Source of the DNA: Escherichia coli
GTDB lineage: Bacteria > Pseudomonadota > Gammaproteobacteria > Enterobacterales > Enterobacteriaceae
Direction: 5' to 3' (one strand)
Assembly: GCF_013315695.1 (NCBI RefSeq)
Contig: NZ_CP054353.1
Length of the DNA stretch: 64,000 bases
Below are positions 12,764 through 58,430 of this stretch, piece by piece. The translations under genes and the position numbers were made by a program. Each line of letters starts with the position of its first letter. The first letter of the stretch is position 1. The notes beneath the pieces are model-generated. The model searched no databases and was not told the DNA's origin. It saw only the letters and a program-made list of their open reading frames with translations.

Positions 12764-12932
12764 TTTTGGTTCAACTAAATACAACGTCAGTTTTGAAGCA
12801 TGGCATGAACTGTTAATGGACTATGCAGAGTTACGTGGTGGCAGTGCTGCTGATGCTGAAGCATGGCGTGATGATTATGAAGCAGGAAAAACTCCGGTCG
12901 AAGCATATTGTGATGAGTGGGGCGATGAATGA
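12756..12932 (+). CDS. Small acidic protein, 58 aa (below the ORF-track cutoff)
   Basis: MADFGSTKYNVSFEAWHELLMDYAELRGGSAADAEAWRDDYEAGKTPVEAYCDEWGDE; start overlaps upstream stop, stop overlaps downstream start. Confidence 0.45.
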   Translation: MADFGSTKYNVSFEAWHELLMDYAELRGGSAADAEAWRDDYEAGKTPVEAYCDEWGDE

Positions 12933-13444
12933 GCGAGATTAATTATCAGGAAGGGCATGAAACGGCAGGGCAGGCAAAACCAGTTGCATGGCGATATCGC
13001 TACGTGAAAAAAGACGTTACAGACTTTCAGGGGAAGCCGTGGGCTGGTGACTGGAAATATGTACCGACAAAAGAGGATTGTAACGACAGGCCGAACTATG
13101 AAATTCAGGCCTTATTCATCGGCCCGCCAGTCCCGGTGACATCAGAAGGACTGGTTAAAGCCGTGCGCTTTTATGAACAGGTAAAGCGTGAGAATCCGCC
13201 AGTCGAAACAGGAGCATGGAAGGATGCTGTTGACTGGGTGCTCAGAGAGGCCTGCTGCGCTGCCATTCTGGGTAAAGCCGACAATCCACCAGCATCCGGC
13301 AATCAGGTTAGCGAATTAACAATGTGGGTTAAACGACTGGTCAGTCAACTGAAAAAAGCTCAGCCGGACTGCAAATTACCGGAGAAGGCGATGGATTACC
13401 TGAAACGAAATGGACTGATAAGCGTGGAGGATGTTTTACGATGA
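12929..13444 (+). CDS. Hypothetical protein, 171 aa
   Basis: MSEINYQEGHETAGQAKPVAWRYRYVKK...; translationally coupled to the upstream small ORF. Confidence 0.55.
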   Translation: MSEINYQEGHETAGQAKPVAWRYRYVKKDVTDFQGKPWAGDWKYVPTKEDCNDRPNYEIQALFIGPPVPVTSEGLVKAVRFYEQVKRENPPVETGAWKDAVDWVLREACCAAILGKADNPPASGNQVSELTMWVKRLVSQLKKAQPDCKLPEKAMDYLKRNGLISVEDVLR

Positions 13445-13564
13445 ATATTTAGACTAAAGAGTTTGTAACGCTATGTAAGTGATTTTTTCTGGTTTAGATA
13501 TTTATATGTCCGGCCAAATTGAGGTGTGTTTAAATGTTATTGCACATTGATTGTAGGGGGAATA

Positions 13565-13744
13565 ATGAAAAACGCATTGCAGTTTTTGTTTGTTGCGTTC
13601 TGGTTGTTCGCATCATGTATGCCCATCATCTTCACAGCAAGGTATATGGAAAAAATTGATGTTTTGATATTAATGTTTGGACATATAAATGCCCTTTTTT
13701 TAGGGGTGTTCATGGCGGTCATGTGCATTGAATACTGGCGGTAA
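13565..13744 (+). CDS. Small hydrophobic membrane protein, 59 aa
   Basis: RBS GGGGG then ATG; MKNALQFLFVAFWLFASCMPIIFTARYMEKIDVLILMFGHINALFLGVFMAVMCIEYWR; AT-rich flanks. Confidence 0.45.
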   Translation: MKNALQFLFVAFWLFASCMPIIFTARYMEKIDVLILMFGHINALFLGVFMAVMCIEYWR

Positions 13745-13889
13745 ATACAGCGAACGCCATTGGTTTAGTTGGATATTTACTGTGCCGGACAAAAACGGTT
13801 TGCGGGGAAATCTTAGTTAAGTAGAATAACTGCGGGTGCTTGAGGCTATCTGTCTCAGGCATGAACACCAAAAGGCAGATAGAGAAAAG

Positions 13890-13953
13890 CCCCAGTTAAC
13901 ATTACGCGTCCTGCAAGACGCTTAACATTAATCTGAGGCCATATCTATGCGAC
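13890..13953 (-). ncRNA. Putative Sok-like antisense RNA of the hok locus (extent approximate)
   Basis: Reverse-strand promoter TTGACC, 18 nt, TAATCT (-35 at 13984-13989, -10 at 13960-13965) pointing across the mok-like start; 3' end not defined. Confidence 0.3.
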
Positions 13954-14006
13954 ACATAGAGATTAGCCTCTTACGGACCGAAAGGTCAAGGAGAAGCAGG
14001 CTATGA
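13947..14006 (+). CDS. mok-like leader ORF (19 codons) translationally coupled to hok
   Basis: ATG CGA CAC ... CTA TGA; its stop overlaps the hok ATG (cTATGAag). Confidence 0.35.
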   Translation: MRHIEISLLRTERSRRSRL

Positions 14007-14158
14007 AGCAGCAAAAGGCGATGTTAATCGCCCTGATCGTCATCTGTTTAACCGTCATAGTGACGGCACTGGTAACGAGGAAAGACCTCTGCGAGGTACG
14101 AATCCGAACCGGCCAGACGGAGGTCGCTGTCTTCACAGCTTACGAACCTGAGGAGTAA
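14003..14158 (+). CDS. hokD: Hok/Gef-family type I toxin, 51 aa (HokD/RelF-like)
   Basis: MKQQKAMLIALIVICLTVIVTALVTRKDLCEVRIRTGQTEVAVFTAYEPEE; RBS AAGGAG. Confidence 0.9.
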   Translation: MKQQKAMLIALIVICLTVIVTALVTRKDLCEVRIRTGQTEVAVFTAYEPEE

Positions 14159-14228
14159 GAGACCCGGCGAGGGAGAAATCCCTCGCCACCTCTGATGTGG
14201 CAGGCATTCTCAACGCACCCGCACTTAA

Positions 14229-14258
14229 CCCGCTTCGGCGGGTTTTTGTTTTTATTTT
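14229..14258 (+). terminator. Intrinsic terminator at the hok mRNA 3' end
   Basis: cccgcttcggcggg hairpin followed by tttttgtttttatttt. Confidence 0.7.
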
Positions 14259-14374
14259 CAACGCATTTGAAGTTCTGGACGGTGCCGGAATAGAATCAAA
14301 AATACTTAAGTAGCGCGCAGGGATAAGAGGGATGGTCCCTTAAAGGGGAGAGCTAATTATCCGGAAGGATTCTG

Positions 14375-14626
14375 ATGATGAACATCGAAGAACTGCGTAA
14401 AATTTTTTGTGAAGATGGCCTCTATGCTGTGTGCGTTGAAAATGGAAATATTGTTAGTCATTACCGCATTGTGTGTTTGCAAAAAAATGGGGCTGCGTTA
14501 ATTAATTTTGTGGATGCCCGAGTGACGGACGGATTTATCTTGCGCGACGGTGAGTTTGTCACTTCATTACAGGTATTGAAAGAGATCGGAATAAAAGCTG
14601 GCTTTTCTGCTTTTTCAGAAGAATAA
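14375..14626 (+). CDS. rem: Rem-like protein, 83 aa
   Basis: MMNIEELRKIFCEDGLYAVCVENGNIVSHYRIVCLQKNGAALINF...; same hok-rem-ydfU order as recalled for Qin. Confidence 0.65.
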   Translation: MMNIEELRKIFCEDGLYAVCVENGNIVSHYRIVCLQKNGAALINFVDARVTDGFILRDGEFVTSLQVLKEIGIKAGFSAFSEE

Positions 14627-14692: not shown

Positions 14693-14971
14693 ATGGCACG
14701 CAACGCAAAATATTACAAACATGATAATTCGACCGTTCTTGCCCACACGCACGAGCGGTATTCTCACGCATTTAAGTCAGACTGGTACCAGCATCCCCCA
14801 TGCACTGAAGAACAGGCCGAATGGCTCATTCAGTGTTACCGCAGGCGCGGATGCGAGGTTAAAAAAGCCCTTAGCCTCGACTACCGTCACTGGATAATCT
14901 CCGTCAGGCTTCCTTACTCCGAACGCCCACCGCGTCTGTCCCGCACATTCCAGCAACGCATCTGGAGGTAA
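14693..14971 (+). CDS. Hypothetical protein, 92 aa
   Basis: RBS GGAG; MARNAKYYKHDNSTVLAHTHERYSHAFKSDWYQHPPCTEEQAEW...; ends 1 nt before the ydfU-like GTG. Confidence 0.45.
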   Translation: MARNAKYYKHDNSTVLAHTHERYSHAFKSDWYQHPPCTEEQAEWLIQCYRRRGCEVKKALSLDYRHWIISVRLPYSERPPRLSRTFQQRIWR

Positions 14972-17367: not shown

Positions 17368-17443
17368 GGCCCTTTAGCTCAGTGGTGAGAGCGAGCGACT
17401 CATAATCGCCAGGTCGCTGGTTCAAATCCAGCAAGGGCCACCA
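17368..17443 (+). tRNA. ileZ: Prophage tRNA with CAU anticodon, Ile2 (lysidine) type, ileZ-like
   Basis: GGCCCTTTAGCTCAGTGGTGAGAGCGAGCGACTCATAATCGCCAGGTCGCTGGTTCAAATCCAGCAAGGGCCACCA; close to host ileX in sequence. Confidence 0.85.
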
Positions 17444-17543
17444 TCACAAACCGCCATTAGCTTATCAGGAAGAGCAGACGACGCGATAACAGGGTTGTTG
17501 GTGCGGGGGCGGGTCCCCGATGGCGGTCCATTATCGGTATTCA

Positions 17544-17617
17544 GCGTTGTTAGCTCAGCCGGACAGAGCAATTGCCTTCTAAGCAATCGGTCACTGGTTC
17601 GAATCCAGTACAGCGCG
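17544..17617 (+). tRNA. Prophage tRNA-Arg (UCU), argO/argN-like
   Basis: Acceptor GCGTTGT/ACAGCGC, D-stem GCTC/GAGC, anticodon stem ATTGC/GCAAT with loop CTTCTAA, T-arm ACTGGTTCGAATCCAGT; no encoded CCA. Confidence 0.8.
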
Positions 17618-17730
17618 CTATATTCATTCTTCCAGATTCCTTCCGGCAGAGCCTTATACTGAAATATACCTGGCTCAGGATATTGTTGAAAATATTATAT
17701 GTTTGTCAAAAATAAAAGTTCTGTTAAGTA

Positions 17731-18084: not shown

Positions 18085-18531
18085 ATACATATCTGGATTA
18101 TCACTTGTTACGGTAAAAAGTGATTGCTTACTGTTTTTGTGAGTGGCATTGCAGCAGCCGGATAATGTCAGTGCTGGCTGACGGTGTGCTGGTGGCGGGT
18201 GTGGTGGTTGTTGCTTTCCCGTTGCTGAAAAAGAAAACGCCAGACTGTTAGCCGGGTATCAGTTAGCGGGAGAAATTTTTAAATACTTCACAATTCAGGC
18301 GGTTGACTGTTGTCTGGTTTGCGGGGAGTTTGTTAAAAGAAACTGGCATGGTGAATCCCCCTGTGCGGAGGGGCAATCAGCGAGTAGGTATATGGGATAA
18401 TCGCGGATTCAGGTGCTGGTACTGAATTCACCGGGAGGCACCCGGCACCATGCAATGGCACATAGCGCCACTCTCCAGCCCCTCTCCGGAGGGGCTGTTT
18501 ATATTGATTTTGTCAGATGTGAGTAAACTCC

Positions 18532-57801: not shown

Positions 57802-58430
57802 TATGTATTCCCTTGTGATTATAATCTTCATGAATATATCAATAAGTGCTGTTATCCAAAAAAAGCACATTTGGATACTATTCTATGAAGTTCATTTTAT
57901 TTTAAAGATTACATGTAACAAATGTATTTAAAAGATTTCAAAATGTTTCTAATCTATTTAATATAATTCATAGTTATGAATTCTGAATATAAATATTCAC
58001 GAATATTATGGATATATATCAATATGTTATGAGTTGATCGAAAAGATAGGGAGTATCAATGATTGTTGCGCTAAACGGCTGGTGTGATCTCGCGCACATT
58101 AATGAAGGCATAAAAAAAAGCCGGCATCATGCCGGCCCAAAAAAATATAAACAAGACGATAAAAGGCTAATAACGGAGGCATGATGACACAGAAAAATAA
58201 AAAGGTATAATTGTAATCAGTACCAATATATTGATTGAATGAATTAATAAAGCCGAAATCAAAGATAAATAACATCGTTCAAATCGATTTTTCCTGTATT
58301 CACCGCCGTTGCGCAAAATTTATCTATTTGTTCAAAAAATGATTGAGTCTTGACTGGCTCATCCAATGTGGAAAAATGTGACTTTTATCACATAATAGTT
58401 CTAAGTCTGAATTTTCCGGGTTATCTCAAA

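Follow-up and report, generated by a model that had tools for sequence, protein, structure and literature searches.

A probably complete hok/sok-type toxin-antitoxin cassette of the hokD form in the nin region of a Qin-like lambdoid prophage of Escherichia coli

We analysed a window of 64,000 nucleotides (nt) of Escherichia coli DNA (RefSeq assembly GCF_013315695.1, contig NZ_CP054353.1), to which all positions refer, and within it a locus that an earlier note on this DNA had read as a Hok-family type I toxin gene with a mok-like leader and an antisense Sok promoter, preceded by a small membrane open reading frame (ORF). The stretch 13800-14254 is very probably a complete and self-contained hok/sok-type type I toxin-antitoxin cassette, the undeleted form of hokD, carried by a Qin-like lambdoid prophage in its nin region. 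Its toxin gene, hok (hokD; 14003-14158, plus strand), encodes 51 amino acids (aa; MKQQKAMLIALIVICLTVIVTALVTRKDLCEVRIRTGQTEVAVFTAYEPEE) that matched the Pfam family PF01848 HOK_GEF (E = 1.2e-23; 82.9 bits, cut-off 22) and PHROG 251, 'MokW-like host killing' (E = 2.8e-33), and that are identical, letter for letter, to UniProt HOKD_ECOLI, so that the 51-aa Hok toxin of the earlier note is borne out both by family match and by exact identity. Toxins of the Hok/Gef family have ~50 aa, with a transmembrane helix at the N-terminus and a conserved Cys in the periplasmic part at the C-terminus, and the family match and the identity to HokD place the peptide among them. The gene is annotated hokD in RefSeq genomes. 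HokD is known to be toxic upon expression (bioRxiv 10.1101/2025.08.07.668861).

Upstream of the toxin gene is a putative hok promoter (13800-13827, plus strand), formed of a -35 hexamer TTGCGG (13800-13805), a 16-nt spacer and a -10 hexamer TAGAAT (13822-13827). This ends 7 nt 5' of the start of a match to Rfam RF01794, a family named 'sok' that models the leader strand of hok mRNA, and the match runs from 13834 to 14005 over model positions 1-157 of 157, scoring 106.7 bits (gathering score 59; E = 1.5e-24). Using an alignment of 15 related phage, prophage and plasmid loci to assess conservation, we found the -10 of the promoter kept in 13/15 loci and the -35 region to be variable. The transcript would be closed by an intrinsic terminator (14227-14254, plus strand), with a 7-pair stem at 14227-14244 containing 5 G-C pairs, a loop of 4 and a T-rich tail that runs to 14254, as the earlier note had described after hok. 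With model position 1 of the Rfam family at 13834 as its start, the predicted full-length hok mRNA spans 13834-14254 (plus strand, about 420 nt), and folding of the 419-nt mRNA gave a minimum free energy (MFE) of -167.7 kcal/mol, z = -8.1 against dinucleotide shuffles. Judged by the Rfam score and the fold z-score, the hok/sok part is far beyond chance.

The predicted folds contain each of the regulatory elements of a hok mRNA. At the 5' end is the translational activator (tac) element (GGGUGCUUGAGG, 13834-13845, plus strand), which in the full-length MFE structure pairs through 12 base pairs with the fold-back inhibition (fbi) element near the 3' end (UCUCAACGCACCC, 14208-14220, plus strand), the two also being recognisable as an inverted repeat. 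In folds of the 5' fragment, and in the Rfam consensus, tac instead pairs with 13887-13893. These bases belong to the ucb or anti-Shine-Dalgarno box (AAGCCCCAG, 13887-13895, plus strand), which in the full-length fold covers the mok Shine-Dalgarno (SD) region at 13933-13939, and in the 5'-fragment fold pairs with tac. When fbi was removed, or the 5' part was folded alone, the 5' end formed a local hairpin or paired with ucb, which is the 'open' form of the Rfam consensus. Thus both alternative states were found, closed (ucb with the mok SD) and open (tac with ucb), together with a 5' metastable hairpin, and the same elements and alternative pairings have been described for the R1 hok mRNA (PMC9841398). 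Further downstream, a hairpin at 13966-13997 (plus strand) sequesters the hok SD, AAGGAG (13988-13993), and a hairpin in the 3' untranslated region (UTR), GGCGAGGGA-GAAA-UCCCUCGCC, lies at 14166-14187 (plus strand).

This architecture is maintained across the 15 loci. The full-length structure had 94.8% of cells paired, compared with 35-43% when the partners were slid by 1-3 columns, and 18 pairs were changed on both sides, a number equalled by 0/500 shuffles. The tac-fbi end pairing (helix 1) had 96.7% of cells paired with tac itself invariant, the outer helix of the hok-SD hairpin (helix 6) was 100% paired, and the 3'-UTR hairpin (helix 16) showed compensatory changes at three pairs. Likewise, tac, fbi, both SD sequences and the hok coding region were near-invariant. 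The sequence elements of the cassette, its structural elements and their conservation are thus shown directly.

Several smaller features were seen in and around the transcript. Within hok, UUACGAA at 14140-14146 (plus strand) resembles the TadA-edited anticodon loop of tRNA-Arg and is a candidate site for A-to-I editing, which would recode Tyr47 (codon TAC, 14141-14143) to Cys. The hexamer TACGAA (T342-A347 of the alignment) was invariant in 15/15 loci and preceded by T or C, and editing of hokD mRNA that creates a second cysteine has been reported (bioRxiv 10.1101/2025.08.07.668861). Beneath the hok 3' UTR, Rfam also returned isrK (26.6 bits; gathering score, 50), rsmX and ceN48, which we rejected as below-threshold matches to a generic hairpin and terminator. 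A second copy of the fbi box follows the terminator (14206-14217 and 14254-14265; ATTCTCAACGCA and ATTTTCAACGCA), and both copies are complementary to a stretch within the downstream gene rem (14431-14448, GTGCGTTGAAAATGGAAA), which is short and may be chance. As functional elements, the post-terminator copy and the complementarity to rem were set aside as short and unsupported.

On the opposite strand is the candidate Sok promoter (13960-13989, minus strand), with a -35 hexamer TTGACC (13989-13984), an 18-nt spacer and a -10 hexamer TAATCT (13965-13960). This reverse-strand promoter was part of the earlier note and is indeed present, in the place where the Stx2 phages 933W and Sp5 have the sokW promoter. 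The annotated ends of 933W sokW align to window positions 13953 to 13885, which places the 5' end of the predicted Sok RNA 7 nt downstream of TAATCT and gives an antisense RNA of about 69 nt (13885-13953, minus strand). This would consist of a single-stranded 5' tail, a long hairpin and a U-rich tail; its fold is a hairpin followed by the CUUUUCUCU tail, with z = -5.0. At the level of sequence, then, the predicted RNA has what is expected of a Sok, namely its own promoter, complementarity to the leader initiation region, and a hairpin with a U-tail. In the Sp5 study the sokW -10, which is homologous to TAATCT of the window, was mutated to silence sokW (PMC8621323); we deduced the identity of the mutated -10 from primers YO-421 and YO-597 of that study and from the alignment.

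Between the ucb box and hok lies a mok-like leader ORF of 19 codons (MRHIEISLLRTERSRRSRL, 13947-14006, plus strand), which has its own SD, GAGG (13935-13938, plus strand), 8 nt before its ATG. The columns of this SD were invariant in the 15 loci, and in the full-length fold it is sequestered by ucb. The leader reads through the hok SD region and stays open from the ATG at 13947 to the hok ATG, where its stop, TGA at 14004-14006, overlaps the hok start at 14003-14005 as ATGA, just as the earlier note had it. Such an ATGA overlap is a classic arrangement for translational coupling, and leader and hok are probably coupled in the window also. In the R1 system, stops within the first 19 codons of mok abolish toxicity, and translation beyond the hok start is dispensable (PMC9841398). 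Because R1 needs mok to be translated just up to the hok SD and start, the leader of the window can be viewed as a natural 'minimal mok'.

The alignment also qualifies the description of this leader as mok-like: a leader of the coupled type is present, but canonical mok has ~70 codons and overlaps hok, and the 19-codon version is one of three frame variants. The 15 loci, with a Hok identity of 90% or more, have the leader ATG and the hok ATG 55, 56, 57 or 58 nt apart, and therefore all three leader frames occur. The leader was in frame with hok in 9/15 loci, as in 933W, where MokW is a 70-aa N-extended Hok; an overlapping mok of 67-68 aa was seen in 4/15; and the 19-codon, stop-on-start leader was found in 2/15, the window and strain PS_131_S11, making it the rarest frame in the sample. 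Frame variants were noted at 13947-14006 of the window and at loci L002, L003, L004, L010 and L012-L019. The 83-nt leader allele (13930-14012) nevertheless returned about 776 records at at least 99% identity in complete E. coli genomes, a count inflated by clonal lineages, and its full-coverage records were 100% identical among the matches listed.

Variation in this region is concentrated in a patch at 13940-13963 (plus strand), which begins a little 5' of the leader ATG, reaches the Sok -10 and comprises the hairpin that carries the ATG and would be the target of the Sok 5' tail. The mean pairwise difference over the 15 loci was 0.336 in the patch, compared with 0.078 in the rest of the mRNA and 0.039 in the hok coding sequence. 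The patch occurs as seven or more discrete alleles, with 6-12 of 26 columns differing between them (alignment A3, loci L002-L019), and the nine distinct patch hairpins among the 15 loci all had energies of -9.6 to -11.0 kcal/mol and sat inside the SDmok/dcb stem. We tentatively suggest that in the young prophage hokD/hokW clade selection acts on leader translation as such and on the specificity of the Sok target, and not on any Mok peptide, the patch having diversified with the shape and stability of its hairpin kept; relaxed constraint plus recombination is the alternative account of the divergence. Among E. coli genomes matching an 871-bp region around the cassette, hok was present in a median of 2 copies and a maximum of 9, and if selection on target specificity is right, co-resident prophage hok/sok copies would be mutually orthogonal, a natural 'address-swapping' for type I antitoxins.

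By homology with R1 hok/sok and hokW/sokW, the following mechanism can be proposed, and it is from this homology that we infer transcription, 3' processing, coupling, toxicity in this context and biological role for the cassette. A stable mRNA of ~420 nt would start at 13834, and in its full-length form the pairing of the 5' tac with the 3' fbi, and of ucb over the leader SD, would permit neither translation nor Sok binding. Slow 3' trimming would then take off fbi and allow tac to pair with ucb, exposing the leader ribosome-binding site and the Sok target hairpin. As long as the unstable 69-nt Sok (13953 to 13885) is made from its own promoter, it would pair across the leader start and the duplex would be destroyed. 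On a drop in Sok, the 19-codon leader would be translated through the hok-SD hairpin and end at the UGA on the hok AUG, with hok translated by coupling or reinitiation, and the resulting 51-aa membrane peptide HokD would depolarise the inner membrane. In Sp5, HokW is toxic and neutralised by sokW in a partly RNase III- and Hfq-dependent manner (PMC8621323), and 3' activation, duplex cleavage by RNase III and killing on Sok decay have been shown for relatives (PMC8621323, PMC9841398).

The identification as a hok/sok-type cassette, which agrees with the overall reading of the earlier note, is thus backed by family models, folding, structure conservation in 15 loci and homology to the annotated and tested hokW/mokW/sokW. 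The following points weigh against it. A generic consensus promoter scan listed neither the hok nor the Sok promoter, the hok -35 TTGCGG and the Sok -10 TAATCT being weak matches; the Sok promoter went unlisted because its -10 fits the consensus at only 3/6 positions, and we based both assignments on position and homology instead of the scan. One tac-fbi pair is G-U in the window and G-C in most relatives. The high count of the 19-codon allele may in part reflect clonal lineages such as ST131 rather than selection. Finally, the allele is known as a sequence, from which we infer its transcripts, processing and toxicity alike.

It is improbable that the locus is a relic, structurally intact yet silent, in which a 1-nt frame change that shortens the leader, or weak promoters, have uncoupled or silenced hok, and which is carried passively, as several chromosomal hok loci seem to be. 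In favour of this, chromosomal hokA, hokB and hokC lacked post-segregational killing (bioRxiv 10.1101/2025.08.07.668861). In addition, the promoter hexamers are weak, the window has the least common leader frame (2/15), and related copies are disrupted by insertion sequences (ISs), ISNCY apparently splitting the hok ATG in E. coli RM14721 and phage PhiR42_1. However, all regulatory elements of the window are intact and the structure is maintained by compensatory changes, while the leader stop at the hok start, in the ATGA overlap of classic coupling, is where the boundary mapped in R1 would still allow it. The IS disruptions in relatives, if anything, argue for a toxin that is costly and hence active, and the Hok sequence is unchanged from a HokD that is toxic on expression (bioRxiv 10.1101/2025.08.07.668861).

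[quoted passage not shown] Prophages are reported to be enriched in hok (bioRxiv 10.1101/2025.08.07.668861). We judge it an even call whether its main role is something other than prophage maintenance, that is, the timing of lysis and release after induction, as for hokW-sokW in Sp5, or abortive-infection defence. The ~90% identical hokW-sokW is also carried by a lambdoid phage, its deletion lowers Sp5 release two-fold, and sokW is lost after mitomycin C in a RecA-dependent manner (PMC8621323); the introduction to that study also implicates plasmid hok-sok in phage defence. From gene order, the cassette lies between P and Q in the early-right operon, and on induction, read-through from pR would cross it. 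A defence role is opposed by the lack of a match to any PADLOC model and by the report, in a preprint, that hok is not enriched near defence systems (bioRxiv 10.1101/2025.08.07.668861).

Outside the hok/sok cassette, immediately upstream, is the hydrophobic ORF of 59 aa that the earlier note had considered a possible second toxin or exclusion factor (13565-13744, plus strand; SD AGGGGG), whose coding status is uncertain. Its presence, hydrophobicity (GRAVY 1.2, two hydrophobic segments) and AT-rich setting are as described, but the toxin or exclusion-factor label has nothing to support it, with no family match, a length within chance and no sign of purifying selection. That the ORF is a genuine gene for a small inner-membrane protein, a prophage moron that could act as a second toxin, in superinfection exclusion or as a modulator of the membrane, is possible but somewhat doubtful, and we hold the plain reading as a real small membrane protein with the same reserve. 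A Shine-Dalgarno sequence lies 4-5 nt upstream, AGGGGG in the window and a perfect AGGAGG in 4/6 variants; the ORF is present in 1569/5426 complete E. coli genomes and mostly intact (about 320 intact versus about 70 disrupted member sequences); it is less variable than its flanks (4/180 versus 11/204 sites); and some annotators call it 'membrane protein'. Against this, an ATG-initiated ORF of at least 63 codons arose in 14% of dinucleotide shuffles of the 389-nt AT-rich spacer, and the opposite strand has an equally long ORF of 63 codons. The region has a GC content of 0.345 and an AT skew of -0.13 to -0.18, and T-rich DNA of this kind gives hydrophobic ORFs by composition alone. All four substitutions (4/4) were nonsynonymous, a result that with so few changes ranges from uninformative to mildly negative. 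Versions with frameshifts or truncations are common, and in strain 55989 the ORF is interrupted by IS1 (L020, about 470-1240). Searches of Pfam, NCBIfam, PHROGs and PADLOC gave zero matches, a full-text literature search for the peptide found no paper, and the ORF was unannotated in all 30 RefSeq genomes among the matches listed. Named homologues were from E. coli and Shigella only, the others being unnamed sequences, and all had at least 75% identity. Because most phages that carry the cassette lack the ORF, we regard it as a module separate from hok. Imperfect direct repeats bracket the ORF (D2, 13494-13518 and 13769-13793, 25 nt, 72% identity) and shorter ones the hok cassette (D6, 13779-13789 and 14279-14289, 11 nt, 91%), and as insertion or recombination scars we set both aside, being of low identity or short, possibly chance, and with the motif absent elsewhere in the window.

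The lambdoid prophage whose nin region houses the cassette is integrated beside tRNA-Ser(cga) (1747-1836, plus strand) and mtfA, with the integrase gene directly adjoining tRNA-Ser. The prophage runs from int through exonuclease, ydfD, dicB, DicF, repressor/cro, ydaT, an O-like gene, P and small nin genes to the 59-aa ORF, hokD, rem, a 92-aa ORF, DUF968/ydfU, rusA and Q, followed by tRNAs and lysis genes, and this order equals that of the K-12 cryptic prophage Qin. The earlier note had remarked that, unlike in Qin, no relBE pair adjoins hok; this is correct, with none within 1.5 kb on either side and a 171-aa hypothetical ORF and rem as neighbours. The neighbouring genes encode conserved phage proteins, which matched PHROG 660 (171-aa ORF, 12929-13444), PHROG 340 (Rem, 14375-14626) and PHROG 1212 (92-aa ORF, 14693-14971) and had no match in Pfam, NCBIfam or PADLOC, and Rem is labelled 'prophage antirepressor' in one GenBank record. 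A scan of 13400-14400 gave a sole sigma-70-like site, the promoter-like TTGAAG-18-TAGAAT (14267-14296, plus strand), which directly follows the hok terminator and precedes rem (14375-14626). Elsewhere in the window are DicF RNA in the immunity-side arm of the prophage (6262-6313, minus strand), two phage tRNAs downstream of Q with anticodons CAT and TCT (17368-17618, plus strand), the CAT one being tRNA-Ile in the annotation of a relative, the small RNA STnc100 (18317-18506, plus strand), tRNA-Asn (680-755, minus strand) and the host gene rseX (58113-58203, minus strand).

The 871-bp region gave 701 records at at least 99% identity and 1067 genomes covering at least 80% of the query, and was 100% identical in many complete E. 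coli genomes, which annotate just 'hokD' there; RefSeq thus marks the toxin alone and omits Sok and the leader. Homology to most phages spans about 13787/13815 to 14230/14253, and because it stops at the edges of the cassette, which has its own promoter and terminator, the cassette is the unit that passes from one neighbourhood to another. Cassettes of the hokD type that are ~89-91% identical were also seen on the E. coli plasmids pM121-2 (L017, 94.6 kb) and pTB-nb1 (L018), and the phage search returned a Punavirus (P1-like) record. The cassette thus passes between plasmids and lambdoid prophages. In E. coli RM14721 (L009, about 1725) and phage PhiR42_1 (L006, about 2555), homology breaks off within the hok ATG, at 14004. 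Some 75 nt beyond this breakpoint, the annotation of RM14721 has an ISNCY transposase pseudogene, and in PhiR42_1 the breakpoint is followed by mobile-element genes.

A cassette of this kind is already known, in that the toxin is HokD and labelled as such by RefSeq, and a version with mok and sok is annotated in 933W and has been tested in Sp5. Its value as a discovery is small, given a textbook HokD toxin and a near-identical hokW/mokW/sokW cassette that has been experimentally dissected, and only two points are mildly new, the natural occurrence of the leader in three frames and the hypervariability of the Sok-target patch. The 19-codon leader, the three frames and the patch do, however, provide natural variants with which to probe the requirement for mok and the cross-talk of co-resident hok/sok copies.

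Comparison with hokD of K-12, which the earlier note had proposed, shows that the window holds the full-length form, with K-12 homology beginning at the hok SD. The hokD (relF) locus of K-12 Qin has an identical Hok and a near-identical sequence from the hok SD through the 3' UTR, fbi and terminator, and is likewise followed by rem, then a DUF968/ydfU gene and then Q. However, it has lost the promoter, tac, ucb, leader start, Sok RNA and Sok promoter, and relBE abuts the remnant, whereas the window does not have this truncated arrangement, in which relE directly precedes hok and the promoter, tac, leader and Sok are gone. The locus therefore shows how the truncated hokD of K-12 looked before relBE, that is, before loss of its 5' half.

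Compared with R1 hok/mok/sok (RF01794, PF01848), the window shares tac/fbi, ucb/dcb, the first 19 leader codons before hok and a Sok over the leader start. Unlike the leader of the window, R1 mok has 70 codons and overlaps hok out of frame, R1 is a plasmid and not a prophage, and Hok identity to R1 is about 44%, the figure given for HokW versus R1 Hok (PMC8621323). The Sok hairpin of the window also has a 16-nt insertion relative to the Rfam consensus. Closest is hokW-mokW-sokW of the Stx2 phages 933W and Sp5 (AF125520; PMC8621323), which is likewise carried by lambdoid phages, has ~90% nucleotide identity across the cassette and shares tac, ucb, the Sok hairpin, the position of the Sok promoter, the hok SD hairpin and fbi. 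The two differ in that MokW of 933W is in frame with HokW while the 19-codon leader of the window is out of frame, in 11/26 columns of the Sok-target patch, in their genomic neighbours, and at the Hok C-terminus (VDYESEK against TAYEPEE).

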